From positions 81,527 to 145,526 of the forward strand of contig JAPLZK010000001.1 in assembly GCA_026395055.1 (NCBI GenBank): a stretch of 64,000 nt of DNA, written 5' to 3'. Both the position numbers and the translations under genes were made by a program. This document shows, piece after piece, positions 705 through 54,727 of the stretch. Each line of letters opens with the position of its first letter. Within the stretch, counting starts at the first letter, position 1. The notes beneath the pieces are model-generated. The model had not been told where the DNA came from. It did not search any database and was given only the letters and a program-made list of their open reading frames with translations. This DNA comes from Candidatus Uhrbacteria bacterium. GTDB taxonomy: Bacteria > Patescibacteriota > Patescibacteriia > UBA9934 > GWF2-40-263.

Positions 705-790
705 GACGGCTCCTTTTCTGTTTTGTTCAACGAACCTGCGAACAAAAACAGGTGCTAATTTAGCACCTGTTTCTTGTTTTTGTCAATCGA

Positions 791-2083
791 TTACATTTTC
801 ACCATCACGCTCTTCACAAGTTCAATCACCTTGCGGTTCAAGACAACCTGTTCAACGTACTGGCGGTATTCTGGGGAATAGATTTGTTTTTTGGATTCTG
901 GGTCTTCATGACGTGCGGCAACCTCATCTAATTCTGTGTCGAGCTCTTCATCTGTTACAGAAAGTGTTTCACGTCTTGCAATTTCACGCATTGCGATTGC
1001 GACCTTAATGCGCATGAGTGCTTGCGGAGTGAAATCGAGTTTGATTTGCACGAGAGTTTTCTTCAGACTCTGTACGTATTTTTCGAAGTCCATTCCTTGT
1101 TCTTCTACACGTGATTTCAATTCACGAATCATCTTTTCGATTTCTTCGTTCAAGAGAAGATCAGGAATATTTTCGAATTGTGTTTTGTTTGCAATGAGTT
1201 CAAGCGCTTCTTTTTCTTGACGCATTTGTTCTTCGCGAATTTTTTCATCCATCAAATTTTTGTGGATAAGGTCGCGCATCATGGCAAAGTCTTTGAGACC
1301 AAGAGATTGTGCGAATGCGTCATCCATTTGTGGAGGTTCAAGATGAAAAAGTTCTTTGAGAACAATTTCGAAATCAATATCTTGGCCTGCCAAAAATTCC
1401 TGTGCATGATCTGCGGGAAACGGAAGTGTGAAGTTTTTTGATTCACCTTCTTTTAATCCAACCAATTGTTCTTTGAACCCAGGAATGTAATATTCTTCCG
1501 CGAGGTAAACTGCATGATTTGGAGATTGTCCGCCTTCAATTCCGACACCTGCTTTTTTCATGTCCATGGACACAACAGCCTTATCTGTTTCCTTCACGAC
1601 TGAACCGGCTTCCGCACGAACTTCTTTTGTTTGCATGCGTGTGAGATCTTTGAGGGCGAGCTCAACATCATGATCTGCAACTTCAGGAACTTTTCCTTGG
1701 ACAGATAATTTTTTGAAATCCGCGAGCTCTTTTACAGACGGCATGCGTGTGACTTCTGCGGTAAAGATGAGTTCATTTCCGGCTGCCATTTTTTCTACTT
1801 CGATTTTTGGAGAACCAACCGTATCGATTTCATTTTTCAAAATGGCTTCCACAAAATATGCGCGCACGATTTTCTCAAGCGCTTCTTCCATAATTTTTGC
1901 TTCCCCAACACGTTGCTTCACGATTTCATATCCTGCCTTTCCTGGACGAAATCCTGGAATGGTTGAGTGTTCAGAAATGTGTTCTGCGGCTGCCTCAAGA
2001 AATGGTTGTTGTTCTTCAACGGACACCGTAAACGTGAGTTTTACGTGACCTTTTTCTTGTTCGTCGATTTGAATGTTTGGCAT
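791..2083 (-). CDS. tig: trigger factor (ribosome-associated chaperone/PPIase)
   Basis: Carries trigger-factor motifs: FRPGKAGYEIVKQRVGE, an N-terminal ribosome-binding region and a long helical C-terminus. The ORF runs to 2170, but the likely start is the internal Met (MPNIQIDEQ...) at 2083. Confidence 0.85.
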   Translation of the reverse strand: MPNIQIDEQEKGHVKLTFTVSVEEQQPFLEAAAEHISEHSTIPGFRPGKAGYEIVKQRVGEAKIMEEALEKIVRAYFVEAILKNEIDTVGSPKIEVEKMAAGNELIFTAEVTRMPSVKELADFKKLSVQGKVPEVADHDVELALKDLTRMQTKEVRAEAGSVVKETDKAVVSMDMKKAGVGIEGGQSPNHAVYLAEEYYIPGFKEQLVGLKEGESKNFTLPFPADHAQEFLAGQDIDFEIVLKELFHLEPPQMDDAFAQSLGLKDFAMMRDLIHKNLMDEKIREEQMRQEKEALELIANKTQFENIPDLLLNEEIEKMIRELKSRVEEQGMDFEKYVQSLKKTLVQIKLDFTPQALMRIKVAIAMREIARRETLSVTDEELDTELDEVAARHEDPESKKQIYSPEYRQYVEQVVLNRKVIELVKSVMVKM

Positions 2084-4194: not shown

Positions 4195-5702
4195 GTTCTC
4201 TGTACTCCCTTGAGGTGTGAGTTGATTTTTGCGGACTCCCGCATTCCCTCTGTGACCTGGCAAGCACCGTCGCTTGGCCAGAGATCTTTCATACCCTGAT
4301 GAGAAATGAGAAGTTCAAACAACTCATTTCCGATTTTCGGACCAACAATCTGTTTGAGGTATCGATGATCCAATTCACACACAAGCGTTAACGCTCCACG
4401 CAAGACCATAACAGCCTTTGTGAGTTGGTCGAGTTCTTGTGTCGTGAGCTTTTCACCAGGTCGAGGGTTGAATGTTTCTCGTGAGAGATGTTTCAACACA
4501 AGACCCGAAAGATCATGCACATTCGGATTCGATGGTTGGCCTTTGAGGCGCAACAATCGATCAAGTGTGAATTGCGCAATTTCAATTTGGGCATCAAGTA
4601 AAGCTTCCATCGAAGGAGGCCCCTCGGGTTTTTCCGTGGGTTCCTCGACGTGTTCTGTGACAGGCACCACAGGTTGATTGATGCGTGTTTCTCGCACGAC
4701 CTCCAGGATTGGTGGGGGTTTCTTAGCATGACTCCGTTTCGGTGGAGTTGCCTTTGCCAATTTTGGCGCAGGGTCTTCCGTCTTCACGATTTGAGGCACG
4801 GCTGGCTTGATTTGGACTTTGAGCGGATGGCTCACAGACCAGATTCCAGATTCTTCTGTGTCTCGATAGTGACGGAGGTTTTCATCAAATGCTTTTTTGA
4901 GCGCGGGCACGCGCTCGCAAACGATGACGCGCAAGATTTTTTCCATCGTTGCGACCGTAAAACGCTTGTCTTTTCCTTTCGGATTCCACCTCTTCAGGAG
5001 GGTGTAAACAATCTGTTTGTGCAGTCCGGTTTTTTCCGAGATGCGTGTGTCTGTGTTTCCAGGAAATGTTTTTAGAAACCATGCGGGCACATGTGTGAAC
5101 GATGGAATGTCTGGAAACAGTTCTTCTGGCTCGCAGCCGAAAATGGCACGGATCATCATGTCGAAGATCAAATCTTCCAGGCAGGTGACGGGTTTGAGCC
5201 CACCACACAACCCTTTCAGAATCGCGGGCAAAAATTCTTGGCTTGGGAGCCGAGCCGAAGCGCCTTCAATCGTCCAACGACAGAAGACACTTGGGGAAAT
5301 CTTGAAGGCGAGTGCCGTATACAGGTCATTGTCATAAGCTTCGCGCAAAATGTTTAGCTCAAGGACAATGTCTGACCGGTGAACGAGTTGATCATAGGAG
5401 ATGAATGCGCTCAGTTCTGGGTGATTCAGAAGCAGCTTTTGCTTTGCATCACACACCATCCAACCATCAATATCGATTCCCGTAAGGGCTTCGATCCGTT
5501 GTTTCTGCGAAGTCAAAAGATCATTTGTCGGCTTGTTTTCAAGCCAATCCGTCAAGTTTTTGAAGCCAACTCCGTTTTTGCGAAGAACTTCTTGTGCTTG
5601 CGGAATGGTTTTTAGGCCATTCAGTTCCATCCATTGTCGCCAGAGTCCCTCGAGGGAGGTGTCCGGGCCAAAGACAAGCGATTTCAATGACTTCGTTTTC
5701 AC
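4191..5702 (-). CDS. hypothetical protein (503 aa), partner of the GHKL ATPase
   Basis: Long ORF with a GTG start at 5702, preceded by AAGGAGGAAAC. It contains a Pro/Lys-rich linker (PAPKLAKATPPKRSHAKKPPP). Its stop TGA overlaps the downstream ATG, implying translational coupling. Confidence 0.55.
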   Translation of the reverse strand: MKTKSLKSLVFGPDTSLEGLWRQWMELNGLKTIPQAQEVLRKNGVGFKNLTDWLENKPTNDLLTSQKQRIEALTGIDIDGWMVCDAKQKLLLNHPELSAFISYDQLVHRSDIVLELNILREAYDNDLYTALAFKISPSVFCRWTIEGASARLPSQEFLPAILKGLCGGLKPVTCLEDLIFDMMIRAIFGCEPEELFPDIPSFTHVPAWFLKTFPGNTDTRISEKTGLHKQIVYTLLKRWNPKGKDKRFTVATMEKILRVIVCERVPALKKAFDENLRHYRDTEESGIWSVSHPLKVQIKPAVPQIVKTEDPAPKLAKATPPKRSHAKKPPPILEVVRETRINQPVVPVTEHVEEPTEKPEGPPSMEALLDAQIEIAQFTLDRLLRLKGQPSNPNVHDLSGLVLKHLSRETFNPRPGEKLTTQELDQLTKAVMVLRGALTLVCELDHRYLKQIVGPKIGNELFELLISHQGMKDLWPSDGACQVTEGMRESAKINSHLKGVQRT

Positions 5703-5784
5703 GTTTCCTCCTTGTAAAGGGCATCCACCAAACCGTAGGCGGAGAAACGATCCTAGCAAAGCAAAGGTCGAATGTCAAGGGAAT

Positions 5785-6718: not shown

Positions 6719-8428
6719 TTAAGAGTCAGTGCCCGTCTGCTTGGGTTTGCGATTGCTGTTCAAGAGTTCCCAGTATTCACGTTTGCCACGCAGGATTTGT
6801 TCCATGACATTTTTCTTGTCATGGCAAAGAGCAAGATAAACTTCTGCCAGCTGACGCACTTCCTTGTGCGGAATCCAGCGCCAATGGTTTTTGTCGCGTT
6901 CGCGATCGAATGCCTTATAAAATTCTTCGTCCTTGCTATGATCTCCGTAAACAGATCCAGGAGCAAGGTTCGAGAATTCAATGAATGCGGTAAGCGATCG
7001 CATGGTTTTTGCTTTTCGCTTTGAGTCCACTGGATTGCAGACGTGTGCCGTGATGTAGAGCAGACGAAGTTCTGCTTCAAATGTTGTTGGTGCATCTGTG
7101 AACACATGCACGACAGGTTTTTCTGTCTCTGCGACGCGGATTTTTTTGTGTGGCTCAGGAACTTTCTCAAACAAACGCAAGAGTGCGTCTGGAAGTTTCG
7201 GATAGTCCGCCTGAAAGCGGAGCATGTTCTCGCGCTGTGTAAAGGATTCATCGTCTGCATTCAAAAGAGCCAGACGGTGTGCCGTCTCTTCCATTTGCAA
7301 ATGGATTTCAGCAGAAAGGCTGAGTTCGAATAGTTCACACGCTCCGCGAATACGTTCGCAACGCGTTCGAAGTTGCTCGAGTTGCTGTTCTGTTTCAAGA
7401 TACACGTTTTTGATTTCGTGAATCCGATCAATGCTGGTCCGCATGATTGTGTCGTGAGATCCAATCTGAAGGCGTTCCGCTTGCAGTTGTGAAAGAAGAG
7501 CTTCAAGCTTGCGTGCATCGTCTGTGTTTGGATGTTGCGTCATCGCACTCATCCAAACATCGAGGCGTGCGCGTCGCGTTGGTGCTTCTTCGATGAGCGC
7601 ATCGCACAACTGTTTGCGTGCATGGCGATGCTCTTGGTAGAGATCGCGTTCGCTTACAAACCGTTGATACTCCGCGCGTAAATTTCTTGGCAGTGCCACG
7701 GCGTCTTCGTAGACTTCGTGAATCAACTGTTGAATCCGCGTGAGGAGTGACGTGTCGCGTGATGGCGCGCCAGGTTTCGCAATTTGCTCAATTGCGTGAA
7801 GGGCATCGTTTGTCTCTCCTTCGGCAAGATGACGAAGCAGTTGAAGGACGTATTCTCCAGCGGGCTGTCCCGCAAGATTCATGTCTTCGGCAAGCTCTGC
7901 GAGATCGCGCAGGTCTGATGTGATGCCTGGCACGTCATCGCGTTCTTCTGCGACAAGGAGTGATTCCTTGAGCGTTTGAATTTCTGTACGAGCCTGCCCC
8001 AAATCGATTGTTGCCTGTGCGAGTTCTGTTGCGACACGCTGTTGTTCGGTGATCAAACGAGCACTCTCAGATTCTGTTTGAGCAAGTTGTGCCTGCATGG
8101 TTTGTTCTGTTTTACGAGAGGCAACCAAGCTTACACGTACTTTTTCGAGTTCCTCGGTTGCGACACGAGCCGCTTCCTCACTCGTCGCCTTTCCCTTCTG
8201 GAGAGAGGTAGTGCGAAGCGTGAGTGTTTCGATCTGTGTTTCAAGAGAAAGGAGTCGTTCTCGCTCTTGTTCTACGGCTTTGAGTTTTTCTCGTTCAAAG
8301 AACGAACGAGATGTTGGAACGAACGCGCCGGGCGCATGCGGAGTATCAAGTTCGATTGCGCGTAGTGGAAGCGACGCGTCGTTCAAGAGTGCCACAAGCG
8401 GCAGGCGAGGCTTTATTGCTGGTGCCAT
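6719..8428 (-). CDS. hypothetical long coiled-coil protein (~570 aa)
   Basis: ORF to 8512, with the likely start at 8428 (MAPAIKPRLP) preceded by AAGGGGAAAC. A central stretch of ~250 aa is Ala/Glu/Gln/Leu-rich and predicted coiled coil. No recognisable catalytic motif. Confidence 0.5.
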   Translation of the reverse strand: MAPAIKPRLPLVALLNDASLPLRAIELDTPHAPGAFVPTSRSFFEREKLKAVEQERERLLSLETQIETLTLRTTSLQKGKATSEEAARVATEELEKVRVSLVASRKTEQTMQAQLAQTESESARLITEQQRVATELAQATIDLGQARTEIQTLKESLLVAEERDDVPGITSDLRDLAELAEDMNLAGQPAGEYVLQLLRHLAEGETNDALHAIEQIAKPGAPSRDTSLLTRIQQLIHEVYEDAVALPRNLRAEYQRFVSERDLYQEHRHARKQLCDALIEEAPTRRARLDVWMSAMTQHPNTDDARKLEALLSQLQAERLQIGSHDTIMRTSIDRIHEIKNVYLETEQQLEQLRTRCERIRGACELFELSLSAEIHLQMEETAHRLALLNADDESFTQRENMLRFQADYPKLPDALLRLFEKVPEPHKKIRVAETEKPVVHVFTDAPTTFEAELRLLYITAHVCNPVDSKRKAKTMRSLTAFIEFSNLAPGSVYGDHSKDEEFYKAFDRERDKNHWRWIPHKEVRQLAEVYLALCHDKKNVMEQILRGKREYWELLNSNRKPKQTGTDS

Positions 8429-8514
8429 GTTTCCCCTTTTGTTGAAAGCCAGAGAGCGAGCGTAGCAAAAGAAATGCGTTCCGTCAAGATATCGTAATAA
8501 AAAAACCGCCACTC

Positions 8515-9345
8515 TTAGGGAGTTGCGGTGAGATAGTTGGATGTGTGATCCAAAGCATATTTTGGCAACGTGCGCTTTTGCCGGTCTTTCTTTGCTCGTT
8601 CAATCAGGTCAATGATTTCTGCGAGCGACAAGCAACGAACAAGATCTGGTTCCGACGCAAGCTGTGCCGCACTCCATTGTTTGAGGACGCCGGATTGCAG
8701 GAGCTCAATCCAATCATCCATACGTTCTGCCCCGTGTGCCTTTGCTAGTGCGAAGATGGTATTGATTTCGATATTGCATTCCTGCGCATACGCAACAAGG
8801 CGCAGACAGCGACATGGTGAAATGGTTGCCTGCATCTCGGTCAAGAGTTTCACGGTGTTCGTGAAGACAAAAGAGGTGAGACGCATTGTTGTCGTGGTCG
8901 AATTTGGTTCACACGCAAGATGTGTTCCAATGAGTTCCATGAGCCGCTCGTATCGCTCCAAAAATTGATCATGCAGACGACCCTTGAGCCCGTCTTTTTT
9001 TCCTGGATTGTCGAACGTCAGCAACTGTTCTTCGCAGAAGCGAATACATGTAGCGGCATCTTCGGGTGTTGCGAAAACAACATCATGTTTTTCTGCAAGC
9101 AAGAGTTGTTCCACCCACACCATTCCACGAATGTGTGTTCTTGAAACAAAAATCTTTGCGTAGAAACCGGATGCAGGTACTTCTGGATAGAGTTCATCGA
9201 AACGCTCGAGAATGAGTCGCAAGCGACCCCATTCATCTTTTCCAAGACTTTTGATAAATGTCTCTTCTGGTTGTGTGAACTGAATCCATGTTCGAAGAGC
9301 TTGGTTCCGTTCTTTCTTTTTCATTCCGTCCTGAATTTTTGCCAT
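8515..9345 (-). CDS. hypothetical protein (276 aa)
   Basis: Clean ORF with GGGGGA before the ATG. It sits directly upstream of the coiled-coil gene and is probably co-transcribed with it. No recognisable motifs. Confidence 0.5.
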   Translation of the reverse strand: MAKIQDGMKKKERNQALRTWIQFTQPEETFIKSLGKDEWGRLRLILERFDELYPEVPASGFYAKIFVSRTHIRGMVWVEQLLLAEKHDVVFATPEDAATCIRFCEEQLLTFDNPGKKDGLKGRLHDQFLERYERLMELIGTHLACEPNSTTTTMRLTSFVFTNTVKLLTEMQATISPCRCLRLVAYAQECNIEINTIFALAKAHGAERMDDWIELLQSGVLKQWSAAQLASEPDLVRCLSLAEIIDLIERAKKDRQKRTLPKYALDHTSNYLTATP

Positions 9346-27765: not shown

Positions 27766-27842
27766 TGGTGGCCTGGACTGGAGTTGAACCAGTGACCTTG
27801 GGCTTAGAAGTCCCCTGCTCTATCCAACTGAGCTACCAGGCC
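27766..27842 (-). tRNA. tRNA-Arg (anticodon TCT)
   Basis: Manual fold: acceptor GGCCTGG/CCAGGCC, D-arm GCTC-AGTTGGATA-GAGC, anticodon loop CTTCTAA, T-arm ACTGG-TTCAACT-CCAGT, with CCA encoded. The anticodon stem has only 3 GC pairs flanked by G·A and A·G mismatches. Confidence 0.75.
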
Positions 27843-48617: not shown

Positions 48618-48887
48618 ATGCGCCGATGGATCTTTGTCGCGATGATCGCTTTGTGTGCTATTGCATGTGAAAAGAAAGTTGAAGGAAAAGAAGAAGACAA
48701 TGTCTCGGGAAATGTCTATCACGTCACATGTTTCTCGGCCGGTCAGGTTGTCTATGAAGGTGATTGGAAATACTCCACTGGCGATGGTTGGGATTACATT
48801 GATGTGAAAACAAAACTGAAATTTCGTTTAAGAGATCACAACGACTGCTACTGGACCAACGCCCCTTTTTACAAAGTAAATCGCTAG
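48618..48887 (+). CDS. small lipoprotein (tandem paralog 2)
   Basis: GGAGGAA lies before the ATG. Lipobox MRRWIFVAMIALCAIAC. The core TCFSAGQVVYEG...HNDCYWTNA is similar to that of the upstream gene. Confidence 0.5.
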   Translation: MRRWIFVAMIALCAIACEKKVEGKEEDNVSGNVYHVTCFSAGQVVYEGDWKYSTGDGWDYIDVKTKLKFRLRDHNDCYWTNAPFYKVNR

Positions 48888-48963: not shown

Positions 48964-48994
48964 AAAAAAAATCGATCTATTTTTTAGATCGATC
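48964..48994 (-). terminator. rho-independent terminator of MazG-like gene 1 (ATCGATCTA-N6-TAGATCGAT)
   Basis: A 9-bp stem followed by a U-run on the minus strand. The same stem sequence follows MazG-like gene 2 at 51907. Confidence 0.55.
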
Positions 48995-49351
48995 AGGTGG
49001 AGGTGTTCGCGTTGCCCATGCGTCGAGGAATTCTTTGATGTCTGCTTCTGTCATGTCGCACGCGGCCGCAAGGCGCATGACGTCGAGGAGAAGTTTTCCA
49101 ACGCGTTGTTGCATGACATCCGTGTTGATGACGGAACCGTGATCAATCATTTCAAGTTGCGAAGCGATGCGGCCGGTAGATGTGATGACATGAAACAGAG
49201 TATGCGCACGCTCAAGACGTTTTTTCCCCGTATCGTCGAGCACTTGCATTTCGGGATATTCTTTTTCCGTGCAGGGATATCGTTCCGTAACGAGTCGGAG
49301 AAGAGCTTCAATGTGCATGGTAAACCTCGAAGTGTGGGAAGAGATTAGCAT
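48977..49351 (-). CDS. MazG-like all-alpha nucleotide pyrophosphohydrolase domain protein (paralog 1)
   Basis: 124 aa with the pattern E...E.....LLDVMRLAAACDMTEADI, consistent with the MazG/HisE fold. It is about 45% identical to the 51928 paralog. Confidence 0.5.
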   Translation of the reverse strand: MLISSHTSRFTMHIEALLRLVTERYPCTEKEYPEMQVLDDTGKKRLERAHTLFHVITSTGRIASQLEMIDHGSVINTDVMQQRVGKLLLDVMRLAAACDMTEADIKEFLDAWATRTPPPDRSKK

Positions 49352-49422
49352 GAGATTTTGTGTTTTACAATGAGATAAAAAGAAAAACCCCGCATGCGTG
49401 TGTATGCGGGGGAAGAAAGGTT

Positions 49423-49839
49423 TTACGCATCAGAATTGGATCCGCAGTCCTCCATCCTATTCATATTTTGCCGAATGGATGGTTCGTATCCATGAAATTC
49501 TCTTCGCACGGGATCCCAAGTCAGACTCAACCCGGTGGGCGGAAGTTTTCTCTCATGCTCCGAACCTTTATAGATTGCTCGTGTCTCTTTTTCTGTCAGG
49601 TGTCTCCAGACGAAATTATCCTCTGGCCCATTGAGTCCCGTGGCACGGATAGAGGAGCCGTCTTTCATGACAAACGTATAGCAGAACTGCACACCGAACT
49701 GCACGATGCTTTCGGCACGAAAATCAGTGATGATGACGTAGCCCGGCCATTCTTTGAATATGGTCAGTCGTCCGTTAAAGTCACATCCAACTTTATGGTG
49801 AATGAACATCGAAAGCCTTTCCGTCGCTTTGTGCCACAT
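49423..49839 (-). CDS. hypothetical protein, array member A (138 aa)
   Basis: AAAGGAG lies 5 nt before the ATG. It is distantly similar to member B: GYVIITDFRAESIVQF versus DYRIVAHMGPEFALIQH, and FCYTFVMKDGSSI versus RWFTVHDDTYPEI. Confidence 0.45.
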   Translation of the reverse strand: MWHKATERLSMFIHHKVGCDFNGRLTIFKEWPGYVIITDFRAESIVQFGVQFCYTFVMKDGSSIRATGLNGPEDNFVWRHLTEKETRAIYKGSEHERKLPPTGLSLTWDPVRREFHGYEPSIRQNMNRMEDCGSNSDA

Positions 49840-49865
49840 GAGATCTCCTTTGAATTCGAATGCGT

Positions 49866-49936
49866 ATTTCCCGTTCTCGTCCGACCATCACTTGATCGTC
49901 CGAGGTTGGGGCCCGTCGAGAGTGAATCGACGGGCA
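49866..49936 (-). repeat. conserved ~72-nt intercistronic element, copy 1
   Basis: Contains a perfect 8-bp hairpin CCCGTCGA-gagtgaa-TCGACGGG, with conserved flanks ggttggggc and atttcccgttctcg. It is about 80% identical to copy 2. Confidence 0.7.
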
Positions 49937-49958
49937 GGTTGAAGAGAGGAATAAGGAA

Positions 49959-50408
49959 CTACTTCCGTCGCCCACGCCTTGGCGCAATCGCGCGTTCACG
50001 ATCAGATCCCCACTCGTTGCGGGTGACTTCGGGGACTTGGGTCGGTTCCGGTTCCACCTGAACGTCCACAAGTGTCTGCAGAAGTTCGTCGAATTTATGC
50101 AGCTCATTCTCGGTTGCTTCGAGATTGTTCTGCGCGCGCTCGACCTTTGCCTTGTAGTAGGCAATGCTGACGATGCTGCCCTCGCGCGCTTGGTTGAGGA
50201 TTAACTTGGCCTCTCCTGCCGTGACCTCCGGAATTTCCGGATAGGTATCATCGTGCACGGTGAACCAGCGACCGTCGATATGCTGAATGAGGGCGAACTC
50301 TGGCCCCATGTGCGCCACGATCCGATAGTCGGGATCATTGAGCGGATCCCCTTTCTTGATTTCCTGTTTGTGGGCGGACGTATGAAAATCATGCCAATAC
50401 TTCTGCAT
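49959..50408 (-). CDS. hypothetical protein, array member B (149 aa)
   Basis: GAAGGAG lies 5 nt before the ATG at 50408. The longer ORF to 50573 would read through the repeat and is rejected. Confidence 0.45.
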   Translation of the reverse strand: MQKYWHDFHTSAHKQEIKKGDPLNDPDYRIVAHMGPEFALIQHIDGRWFTVHDDTYPEIPEVTAGEAKLILNQAREGSIVSIAYYKAKVERAQNNLEATENELHKFDELLQTLVDVQVEPEPTQVPEVTRNEWGSDRERAIAPRRGRRK

Positions 50409-50435
50409 GGGAACTCCTTCTCGATCTTGGGAATC

Positions 50436-50508
50436 ATTTCCCGTTCTCGAACGACCAGTCAATCTGATCATCCAAGGTTGGGGCCCGTCGAATGTGAATC
50501 GACGGGCG
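50436..50508 (-). repeat. conserved ~72-nt intercistronic element, copy 2
   Basis: CCCGTCGA-atgtgaa-TCGACGGG hairpin with the same flanks as copy 1. Confidence 0.7.
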
Positions 50509-50520
50509 AGTTTGTGTGGG

Positions 50521-50850
50521 CTAAAGACCGACGTTGACAGCGAAGAGTCGTTCGAGTCGAACGCATATGCCAAGAGCTTTTACTTTGTATTCCGGGTGCT
50601 CCTCCTTGAGCAAGTCACAAATTTCTTTGAAGTTGTGATTGGTCCACACAGAAATCTCTTTTTCTGCGTGCCTAATAATGAGTGTCCCCTCACACAGGCC
50701 TCTACCGGTCATTCCTGGACTATTCAACACTCCCATGAACATCAACCAGACATTCATTCGAGCATTTCCGGCGCGCAGAAGGAGTCCTTTGTTGGTTTCG
50801 ATGAGAATGAACTCTTGATGCACACTGTCAGCGATCAAAACCTTTTTCAT
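50521..50850 (-). CDS. hypothetical protein, array member C (109 aa)
   Basis: First ORF of the minus-strand array. The upstream region has repeated gcgaaaa(aa)ccggtt motifs. Confidence 0.4.
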   Translation of the reverse strand: MKKVLIADSVHQEFILIETNKGLLLRAGNARMNVWLMFMGVLNSPGMTGRGLCEGTLIIRHAEKEISVWTNHNFKEICDLLKEEHPEYKVKALGICVRLERLFAVNVGL

Positions 50851-51105
50851 GATGAGCTCCTATTTCTGTGAAAGGTGCGAAAAAACCGGTTCTCGGATAG
50901 ATCTAATGAGAGTTCTATGCGAAAACCGGTTTTACAATCTTTTGGGCGCGGATTGTTCGCGTTCTCTCCTTTCCCGATAGTTGAGATGAGCTCGTTTGTT
51001 GATTCCCCGTTCTGATCTTGATGAACCAAGTTTATCAGTTTTTTGCAAAATTGTCAATTTATAATGTACAGAATGAGCAATATTTTTGAGTAATTAACAT
51101 ATAAA

Positions 51106-51134: not shown

Positions 51135-51160
51135 TAATGTTGTACATAATTACACAACAT

Positions 51161-51904
51161 ATGTTGATCGATGAGCTTAAATCTCTTGGATTGTCGGATC
51201 AGGAGGCTTCTGTGTATCTTGCTTGTGCCGAGATGGGGTCTTCCACCGTTCTTGAAATTGCTAAGAAAACGAAAACGCACAGAACAACTGTGTATCACAC
51301 AGTTCAAGGTTTACTCGAGAAAAAGCTGTTCTCGGAATCTGTTCGTGGGAAACGCCGTGTGTTTGTTCCGGAAGGTGCGGATGCGTTTAAGAAGATGCTA
51401 CAAAGCAAGCTTGCACGTGTGGACGGGATCGCAGGTGAGCTCTTGGCTTTGACGAAAGAAAGCACGATGAAACCCATCGTAAAATTTCATGTTGGGGTTG
51501 AAAGTATTAAAGATACGATCCGTACATCGGTGTTGGATGTAAAAGAAAAATTCCAATATGGAATTTTTACTGTGGAAGAAATGATGAGCTCACATGGATT
51601 GAAAGAATTTTTCTTGGGAGAATATAGTGCACTTCGTGAAAAGAATGGATTGTTTGCAAAAATTATTGTCGCGGATACGGAAGATGGAAAAGCGTACAAG
51701 AGTTTGGATAAAGAAAAATTTCGCGAAACAAAACTCCTTCCCGCATCCAGCTACCATTTCCCCACAGAGGTGATGATCTCCGGAGATGTTGTGTTGTTAT
51801 TTGTGATTTCAGAAAAAGAACAATTTATTATTTCCGTCGAGAGTGCTGCGATCGCGATGACGTTTAAGATGATTTTTAATGCGGTGTGGACATTGGGGTA
51901 TTAA
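51161..51904 (+). CDS. TrmB-family transcriptional regulator (paralog 3 of 3)
   Basis: wHTH LGLSDQEASVYLACAEMGSSTVLEIAKKTKTHRTTVYHTVQGLLEKKL. The start was moved to MLIDELKS. Confidence 0.7.
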   Translation: MLIDELKSLGLSDQEASVYLACAEMGSSTVLEIAKKTKTHRTTVYHTVQGLLEKKLFSESVRGKRRVFVPEGADAFKKMLQSKLARVDGIAGELLALTKESTMKPIVKFHVGVESIKDTIRTSVLDVKEKFQYGIFTVEEMMSSHGLKEFFLGEYSALREKNGLFAKIIVADTEDGKAYKSLDKEKFRETKLLPASSYHFPTEVMISGDVVLLFVISEKEQFIISVESAAIAMTFKMIFNAVWTLGY

Positions 51905-51936
51905 AAAATCGATCTAGAACAGATCGATTACGTTTT
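51903..51936. terminator. bidirectional terminator (AATCGATCT-agaac-AGATCGATT)
   Basis: The same stem sequence as the terminator of MazG-like gene 1. Confidence 0.55.
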
Positions 51937-52302
51937 ATCAGATTGTTCCTGTGCGCGACGTGTGCTCCATTCGGTGAAGAAATTTTCTAGTTCTCCTGGA
52001 GTGATATCGCACGCTGTTGCAATACGCGCCAAGTTCATGAACATGGTTCCAATCGCTTTGCGCAATGCTTCGTGGTCGAGCGGTGCGCCGTGGTCATGTG
52101 ATTCGAGTGCGTCTGACAATCGCCCGATCGCTTTTAGATGATGCAAAAGCGTATGGTGGCGTTCAAGTCGTTTGCGTTCTGCCTTCGATTTACCTTTCAT
52201 GGGCGAATATTCAATTTCCGTGCATGGCCAAAGATTTTGAACGAGTTTCATGAGAGATGCAATGAGCATGGATTCCTCCGTAATGTGTGAAGAGATTAGC
52301 AT
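51928..52302 (-). CDS. MazG-like nucleotide pyrophosphohydrolase domain protein (paralog 2)
   Basis: 124 aa, starting MLISSH like paralog 1. Carries KRLERHHTLLHHL...MFMNLARIATACDITPGELE. Confidence 0.5.
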   Translation of the reverse strand: MLISSHITEESMLIASLMKLVQNLWPCTEIEYSPMKGKSKAERKRLERHHTLLHHLKAIGRLSDALESHDHGAPLDHEALRKAIGTMFMNLARIATACDITPGELENFFTEWSTRRAQEQSDKT

Positions 52303-54651: not shown

Positions 54652-54727
54652 GTCCTCGTAGCATAATTGGATAGTGCTGTAGCGTCCTAAGCTATAGATG
54701 GGGGTTCGATTCCCTCCGGGGACACCA
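54652..54727 (+). tRNA. tRNA-Arg (anticodon CCT)
   Basis: Manual fold: acceptor GTCCTCG/CGGGGAC, D-arm GCAT...GTGC, anticodon arm GTAGC-GTCCTAA-GCTAT, T-arm GGGGG-TTCGATT-CCCTC, with CCA encoded. Confidence 0.85.

Follow-up and report, generated by a model that had tools for sequence, protein, structure and literature searches.

What is the repeated element that stands between the genes of a small operon in a Candidatus Uhrbacteria genome, and does it act as DNA or as RNA? The operon lies in a 64,000-nucleotide (nt) stretch of contig JAPLZK010000001.1, hereafter the window, where three small open reading frames (ORFs) named C, B and A, of 109, 149 and 138 aa, are read in that order from the minus strand. 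Each ORF is preceded by a strong GGAG Shine-Dalgarno (SD) sequence, and the C-B and B-A gaps hold one copy each of the element. The ORFs and two ~72-nt repeats had been pointed out in an earlier reading of the letters alone (the original prediction), and we found both in place: the whole gaps are 79% identical, and their core blocks 88-91%. The palindrome pattern, expected 0.16 times in the window by chance, was found twice; together with the identity of the gaps and cores, this indicates that the repeats are real. The evidence below makes it likely that the element is a functional cis-acting RNA structure and leads us to favor, tentatively, a role in processing or stabilizing a polycistronic transcript.

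Each copy folds into two hairpins, P1 and P2, with no spacer between them (copy 1, -39.5 kcal/mol, z -5.95; copy 2, -36.9 kcal/mol, z -5.24, relative to shuffled sequences). In the window copies, P1 consists of GCCCGUCGA, a 7-nt loop and UCGACGGGC. The perfect stem of the original prediction is thus present, with 9 bp rather than the 8 bp reported. P1 is GC-rich, its sequence is free to vary, and its loop ranges from 3 to 9 nt across copies. P2 reads CCC [AAC] CUYG [GA] YGAUCA(G), loop, (C)UGGUCG [NN] CGAG [AAC] GGG, followed by AAAU, with internal loops in brackets. It has 13-14 pairs plus stackable internal loops, which are symmetric (3x3 and 2x2) and free of bulges, and the framework CCC-AAC-CUYG-GA-YGAUCA ... 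UGGUCG-NN-CGAG-NNN-GGG is nearly invariant across the family. The partner of the 3' GGG of P2 is the CCC immediately 3' of P1 rather than any part of P1, and the conserved tail that had been taken for single-stranded (GAGAACGGGAAAU) is in fact the 3' strand of P2. A switch in which the ACGGG of this tail would pair alternatively with the CCCGU of the stem did not hold up either: 83.6% of the cells pair, no compensatory change occurs, and 500 of 500 shuffles do as well.

Several known kinds of RNA element were considered for this fold and rejected. A riboswitch or two-state leader has no supported exclusive pairings and no expression platform. A hammerhead or hairpin ribozyme core would require an invariant U in GAUGA that is C in most copies, and no Rfam match was found; for a kink-turn, the tandem G-A pair lies 4 bp away from the 3-nt loop. 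P1 is not an intrinsic terminator: it lacks the U tract that true terminators of these loci possess, it is followed by YCCCAAC in all type 1 copies, and the terminator scan, which picks up the operon-end terminator, gives no call for it on the sense strand. Masking of the SD sequence by a conserved CAACUC flank was also rejected, since duplex energies were no better than those of shuffled flanks.

The P1 stem is always followed by YCCA (window 50483-50479 and 49911-49907, minus strand), resembling the acceptor end of a tRNA minihelix, and all three tRNA genes of the window (27766-27842, 36358-36432 and 54652-54727) encode their 3' CCA. A link to RNase P processing would be speculative; the CC of YCCA is also predicted to pair with GGG.

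To survey how widely the element occurs, we scanned one genome per species (596 Gb) with a pattern of 20 specified bases. The scan returned 18 loci, of which 17 were chance matches (about 20 were expected by a rough estimate) and one, L012, was real. L012 is a contig of a metagenome-assembled genome that is syntenic with the window, and L033 is its full contig. Further relatives' loci were taken with the TrmB-like winged-helix protein, encoded divergently from the operon, as anchor; this protein has seven homologs at 56-94% identity. At the shared chromosomal spot the gene order is SNase, rpsT, rmuC, TrmB divergent from the array, and holA. A covariance model built from 11 copies identified 14 distinct copies in six related Uhrbacteria loci: 11 type 1 copies scored 63-98 bits and 3 type 2 copies, which have the same architecture but a longer P1 of ~20 bp with the apex ATCAC...GTGAT, scored 24-44 bits. 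By comparison, 20 unrelated control loci, most of them chosen for carrying the same unpaired motifs, scored at most 16 bits. The model found no further copy in the remainder of the 64-kb window.

Only one narrow clade is known to carry the family. Of two patterns run against JGI metagenomes, the first matched nothing and the second produced two chance hits; in IMG/VR viral contigs, the first produced one chance match and the second nothing; and blastn found no copy in phage and plasmid collections. With E values as high as 10 admitted for the window, and as high as 1 for L033, L022 and L027, no Rfam family overlapped any copy, in line with the original prediction, which had recognized no named riboswitch or leader. 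A literature search on integrons or RNA motifs in the Candidate Phyla Radiation (CPR) found nothing relevant. As far as these searches show, the element matches no described RNA family, and its association with ORFan operons and a TrmB-like regulator in CPR bacteria is apparently undescribed.

Both the fold and its strand are supported by comparison of the copies. When 11 copies are aligned with MAFFT, standard pairs fill 96.8% of the pair cells, compared to 24-43% in slid controls, and compensatory double changes occur at 8 of the 23 pairs, compared to 2.5 in shuffles (none of 500 reached 8). With all 14 copies, 95.6% of cells are paired and 12 of the 23 pairs are compensated, including the basal CCC/GGG helix, although this alignment was fitted to the model and so leans towards structure. 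G-U combinations fill 26 cells and A-C combinations 4, one U-G pair is invariant in all 14 copies, and in each of the 11 copies compared, folding is more stable for the sense strand than for the antisense strand. The one-sided wobble pairs and the folding energies place the fold on the coding strand, which points to the transcript.

These observations bear directly on whether the P1 palindrome might instead be a DNA operator bound by the TrmB-like regulator, a palindromic operator having been among the original suggestions. Within L012, the P1 sequence GGCCAUCG/CGAUGGCC occurs beside GCCCGUCGA/UCGACGGGC, a difference that arises by compensation inside one genome, and the G-U pairs of P1 would be A-C mismatches in the symmetry of a DNA duplex. 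The loop varies in length, the site lies 0.5-1.1 kb downstream of the promoter, and the most conserved part of the element is P2, not P1. Such an operator could well look like P1, whose 9-bp arms form a perfect inverted repeat around a 7-bp spacer not far from the gene of a winged-helix regulator, or like the type 2 apex, but in view of the changes in P1 we regard this explanation as scarcely credible.

The element is also under selection. Synonymous sites of the TrmB gene are saturated (pS 0.65 between the window and L012, 0.75 between the window and L026), yet the element copies are 58-91% identical (mean, 73%), which indicates purifying selection and excludes a recent duplication. Not all parts are conserved alike: the P1 sequence and the two loops vary, while the 5' strand of P2, with its AAC and GA loop residues, is almost invariant. 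This contrast suggests recognition by a sequence-specific partner rather than selection for stability alone.

Conservation of this kind is hard to reconcile with a selfish or neutral repeat of the repetitive extragenic palindrome (REP), bacterial interspersed mosaic element (BIME) or miniature inverted-repeat transposable element (MITE) type, or with a recent segmental duplication. The element is short, palindromic, intergenic and confined to a narrow clade, as such a repeat might be. However, the 64-kb window contains no more than two copies, which share one operon; across the family, all 14 run in the direction of the genes and lie in the same kind of operon; terminal inverted repeats and target duplications are missing; the element is conserved in the face of saturated synonymous divergence; and it shows covariation and strand-specific wobble pairs. 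REP/BIME hairpins in enterobacterial operons stabilize the upstream mRNA and occur genome-wide in hundreds of copies and in both orientations. They resemble the element in being stable intercistronic hairpins downstream of a stop codon, able to protect the upstream cistron from 3' exonucleases, but the element is limited to one kind of operon and a single orientation and adds a second, sequence-conserved hairpin. A selfish or duplicated repeat is therefore largely refuted and very improbable: the element does occur elsewhere, it covaries, and in the window and the related loci scanned it is not scattered as REP or MITE families are.

The genomic context of the copies is uniform. Every copy has the same orientation as its flanking genes, and all 14 lie in operons of small ORFans (Table 1). 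The distance from the preceding stop codon to the element is 6-23 nt, and that from the element to the next start codon is 17-45 nt. In the main arrays, none stands before the first ORF, where there is a conserved 5' untranslated region (UTR) instead, or after the last ORF, where there is a terminator; a strong hairpin, P1 or that of a terminator, lies 3' of every array ORF. The TrmB1-linked arrays are read divergently from the TrmB1 ortholog, and the array-side flank of L022, L023, L026, L027, L028 and L029 holds a divergently read small ORF in each case. L033 has, at 7201-8685, a further TrmB-like paralog with 26% identity to the first; a 128-aa ORF is read divergently from it, in an operon that carries an element. 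The pairing of regulator and operon is therefore a recurring module, present at least twice in that genome.

The proteins encoded between the elements are unrelated. A and B had been described as recognizable paralogs, but their BLASTP match has an E value of 51, the other pairs of A, B and C give none or an E value of 9.2, and the Smith-Waterman scores of A-B, A-C and B-C all fall within their shuffle distributions. As the ORFs are unrelated, the operon is not an array of paralogs, and the comparison to an immunity-gene array falls with that description. No array ORF has a match in Pfam, PHROGs, PADLOC or NCBIfam, and no relatives of the array proteins were found in viral contigs. The 20 array ORFs of seven loci form only three small homology groups: the B family (window, L012 and L022), a short acidic last ORF (L022 and L023), and a weak link between L026 and L028. 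The B family has 3 members in 5.8 billion clusters and 1.84 billion representatives. ORF B is under purifying selection (dN/dS ~0.2 versus L012), and its AlphaFold2 model, with a predicted local distance difference test score (pLDDT) of 78, has no fold match in the PDB. Codon usage is best in the annotated frame for 14 of 15 array ORFs; for ORF A, the annotated frame and one antisense frame are nearly tied.

These ORFs are replaced while the elements stay. Upstream of the first ATG and from the last stop codon onward, the window matches L022 at 86% identity; between those points only the elements match, and the gene content is wholly different. ORF B is the second cistron of the window operon, but its homologs come first in L012 and L022. 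The 5' edge of an element is where L022 and L023 begin to be homologous, and elements beside orthologous ORFs are not each other's closest relatives. As an observation of its own, L027 carries a type 2 and a type 1 element in tandem, ~110 nt apart (778-1081, minus strand), and the sequence that separates them looks like a decayed cassette, with a GGAG still present but no ORF.

Such turnover raises the question of whether the element acts chiefly on DNA, as the recombination site or homology linker of a gene-cassette system, similar to the attC sites of integrons or to the promoter early stem-loops (PeSLs) of phages. Unrelated, promoterless, co-oriented ORFans behind one promoter at a fixed chromosomal spot fit this explanation well, and so do the exchange of all genes between well-conserved flanks, the changed place of ORF B, the homology edge shared by L022 and L023, and the decayed remnant between two elements in L027. 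Integron arrays have the same layout, and attC sites are likewise imperfect-hairpin repeats, 60-110 nt long and similar within an array whose content differs between close relatives. Both attC and the element carry a YCCCAAC motif at one end, the 5' side of P2 thereby resembling the R-box consensus RYYYAAC. In attC, however, R' (RYYYAAC) pairs with R'' (GTTRRRY) to form an R box with the crossover triplet, one arm has extrahelical bases, the central spacer of 5-6 nt is unpaired, and it is the bottom strand that recombines (PMC5027507). The element cannot form this box: its AAC is unpaired in 11 of 11 copies, where only CCC and GGG pair, and faces AAC, AGA, CAC or CCC but never GTT. Its internal loops are symmetric with no extrahelical bases, and it is the sense strand that folds.

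The surroundings of the arrays also differ from those of integrons, in which an IntI tyrosine recombinase gene and attI lie next to the array and an attC follows every cassette, including the last (PMC5027507). The element arrays have no integrase, no attI and no repeat after the last ORF, and precomputed Pfam calls for L023, L026, L027, L028 and L033 include no recombinase within 5-10 kb. Clusters of attC without an integrase do exist, so its absence alone is not decisive. PeSLs, in which a strong sigma-70 promoter is joined to a terminator stem-loop (PMC2839356), flank small ORFans in hyperplastic regions of T4-type phages, and recombination between the motifs has been shown (PMC2839356, PMC4122927). 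As conserved composite motifs beside shuffled ORFans they offer the best analogy for a passive linker, and by that analogy elements may recombine with one another; however, a PeSL makes each ORF its own transcription unit, whereas the element sits inside one operon and has neither a conserved promoter nor a U tract. Furthermore, homology between the window and L022 breaks off at a start codon and a stop codon rather than in an element, the elements of orthologous ORFs are not closest relatives, and conservation of a structure with G-U pairs is unneeded for plain homologous recombination. We therefore consider a primarily recombinational role unlikely. Cassette-boundary repeats, as the original prediction had it, remains a fair description, in that unrelated ORFs are swapped while the repeats stay, but membership among integron attC sites does not.

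With the fold on the transcript and one copy at each junction, the element belongs in kind with intercistronic structured RNA signals. A novel cis-acting RNA or RNase processing site had been among the original suggestions, and the covariation, sense-strand wobble, co-oriented intercistronic position, selection and absence from Rfam bear this out. The favored model takes its precedent from the early genes of phages T7 and SP82, where RNase III sites between genes are repeated, similar hairpins with internal loops; cutting leaves a protective hairpin at the 3' end of the upstream message and gives a defined leader to the downstream one. Those sites and the element are alike as repeated irregular hairpins in polycistronic gaps, and P2 provides the structural part of an RNase III-type site, for which an irregular duplex of about two helical turns within a polycistronic RNA is characteristic. 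The element differs in its extra hairpin P1, its far more conserved sequence and its place on a CPR chromosome rather than in a phage, with cleavage here putative, and there is no sequence similarity between the two.

In this model, the operon would be transcribed from one promoter as a single polycistronic RNA, and a sequence- and structure-specific trans-acting factor would bind P2. The most likely candidates for this factor are an RNase III-like endoribonuclease specific for double strands and a dedicated nuclease. Cleavage at the element would leave the upstream cistron with a P1-protected 3' end, the last cistron would gain like protection from the terminator hairpin, and the downstream cistron would receive a defined leader, so that the expression of each gene would be insulated from that of its neighbor. 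As the same ~70 nt stand at every junction, the elements are probably also passive homology linkers for the gain, loss and reshuffling of ORFs.

Several points weigh against this model. Cleavage is a step that we infer outright, and no candidate nuclease is found in the neighborhood. Little sequence conservation is normally required for RNase III, and the near-invariance of P2 is thus at least equally compatible with a dedicated RNA-binding protein. The L033 copy at 7201-7311 (type 2) follows a single ORF and is followed by a terminator, with no further cistron. All copies come from a single narrow clade, and some of the covariation counts therefore reflect shared ancestry. Finally, the breakpoints between the window and its closest relative, at the first start and last stop codon and outside the elements, leave the shuffling role hypothetical.

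The fit of P2 to an RNA-binding protein leads to a non-cleaving alternative, in which P2 at each junction is the binding site of a trans-acting protein or small ligand that jointly controls how the downstream cistrons are translated or degraded. Precedents for such operator RNAs are CsrA sites and the operators of phage RegA and coat proteins. The evidence for structure, strand and selection applies to this alternative equally, a protein that binds a specific sequence would account for the near-invariant stem and the invariant U-G wobble, GGA motifs occur in the internal loops and the tail, and the element ends close upstream of each start codon. Against it, the distance between the element and the SD sequence varies, pairing of flank and SD is no better than with shuffled flanks, and the predicted probability that the SD is unpaired is inconsistent, from 0.03 to 0.82. 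There is no expression platform, the proposed switch is unsupported, and the fold lacks the multi-helix junction or pseudoknot typical of a ligand-binding pocket. The L033 copy, moreover, has no downstream cistron to regulate. Operator RNA thus seems possible but rather unlikely, and a processing or stabilization signal acting through a trans-acting factor is the reading that we tentatively prefer.

A further alternative is control of transcription itself, by shielding the untranslated gaps from Rho or by processive antitermination on RNA polymerase. Its precedents, the two-hairpin put RNA of phage HK022 and the intercistronic EAR element, occur once per transcription unit, upstream of the terminators that they suppress. 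Like put, the element consists of two adjacent stem-loops of ~70 nt without a spacer that act in cis on their own transcript, and it shares with EAR only an intra-operon position; it has no sequence similarity to put, EAR or any Rfam antiterminator. The intercistronic position would suit such a role, and the terminator-like hairpin in the leader makes control of termination plausible. However, the elements lie downstream of that hairpin and so cannot aid read-through there, one antiterminator per operon would be enough where there is one element per junction, and the final terminator must still work. We consider transcription control improbable.

A bolder proposal combines these features into a gene-sampling platform in CPR bacteria, in which exchangeable ORFan cassettes sit behind a regulator-controlled promoter and a dedicated punctuation element marks their boundaries at the RNA level. 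The element would be cut by a specific nuclease or by itself as a new class of ribozyme, and might be handled as a tRNA-like minihelix; RNA insulation would replace attC in an integron-like function with no integrase. We regard this proposal as quite unlikely.

CPR bacteria, or Patescibacteria, have tiny genomes, and almost nothing is known about their post-transcriptional regulation. The element provides a testable RNA motif with comparative support, tied to a module of a TrmB-like regulator and rapidly replaced small proteins, and its covariance model enables a search for such arrays in other genomes. If processing and insulation are its function, it shows how new genes can stay expressible in any order and could be reused as a natural cistron insulator; if ORF exchange takes place as well, the arrays would be an integrase-free counterpart of the integron.

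Table 1. Features of the operon and of related arrays (window coordinates unless a locus is named)
Feature	Position	Strand	Remarks
ORF C	50521-50850	-	109 aa; first cistron; ORFan; codon usage best in annotated frame
ORF B	49959-50408	-	149 aa; second cistron; sole array protein here with homologs
ORF A	49423-49839	-	138 aa; last cistron; ORFan
Element copy 1	50431-50510	-	Covariance-model match, 92.8 bits
Copy 1, P1	50507-50483	-	
Copy 1, P2	50482-50440	-	
Copy 1, AAAU tail	50439-50436	-	
Element copy 2	49861-49938	-	Covariance-model match, 89.5 bits
Copy 2, P1	49935-49911	-	
Copy 2, P2	49910-49870	-	
Copy 2, AAAU tail	49869-49866	-	
Predicted operon promoter	51029-51057	-	TTGACA, 17-nt spacer, TG-TAAACT; consensus scan, 10/12 matches
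5' UTR hairpin	50876-50933	-	23-nt arms, 87% complementary (inverted repeat I3), then six-U run
Intrinsic terminator closing the operon	49378-49411	-	CCCCGCAU...AUGCGGGG, then U run; terminator scan
TrmB-like winged-helix regulator gene	51137-51904	+	Pfam PF01978, E 3e-11; divergent from operon
Window array			3 ORFs, 2 elements
L012 array			5 ORFs, 4 elements
L022 array			3 ORFs, 2 elements
L023 array			2 ORFs, 1 element
L026 array			2 ORFs, 1 element
L027 array			2 ORFs, 2 elements, with a decayed ORF-less remnant between them
L028 array			1 ORF, 0 elements
Further L012 operon			2 ORFs, 1 element; starts at contig edge
GC-rich pre-SD hairpins	L012 3440-3470, 5060-5097; L023 8701-8760; L026 3985-4030; L027; L028; L033 7705-7745		

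The signals that bound the operon are conserved along with the elements. The promoter had originally been placed near 50900; that region is the 5' UTR hairpin, and the predicted promoter lies farther upstream, giving a 5' UTR of ~170 nt. It stands back to back with the promoter of the TrmB-like gene, and its sequence is kept in L022 and L023, which suggests, from motif matches and conservation, that it drives the operon. The 5' UTR hairpin is kept in L012 (2800-2855) and in the 5' UTRs of L022 and L023 and resembles a leader attenuator, a function it may have. The operon-closing terminator is kept 3' of the last ORF in L022, L023, L026 and L027. In L012, the terminator after the last ORF (5696-5735) has a stem of P1 sequence, GCCCGUCG...CGACGGGC, plus a U run, which hints that P1 and the operon terminator are evolutionarily related.

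Promoter-like hexamers (TTGACT-18-AATGAT, 9/12 matches) also occur inside copy 1, at 50433-50462 on the minus strand. They fall in the variable P2 loop and the tail and are missing from the other copies, so they are probably due to chance. At many array ORFs, a short GC-rich hairpin lies directly upstream of the conserved CAGGAGUUC Shine-Dalgarno region, and in some elements (~5 of 12 copies, not universally) a GGGAAAnnnUUCCC hairpin overlaps the 3' GGG of P2.

Beyond the operon, a stretch of the window at 48158-48887 (plus strand) has two adjoining small ORFs with similar lipoprotein-like N-termini (..FAMPGACEK and ..ALCAIACEKK) and similar Cys/Gly-rich cores, a similarity known from the ORF translations only; the stretch is missing from the syntenic L023. 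Two 124-aa paralogs, 39% identical and encoded at 48977-49351 and 51928-52302 (both minus strand), bracket the block formed by the TrmB-like gene and the array, and only the downstream copy is present in L022 and L023. The two proteins have no family or PDB match, and an AlphaFold2 model is all-alpha but of low confidence (pLDDT 61), too poor to use. Both contain a common KKRLERxHTLxH stretch that resembles an Rx4H motif, and the same AAAAAATCGATCTA-containing palindromic terminator lies 3' of each gene.

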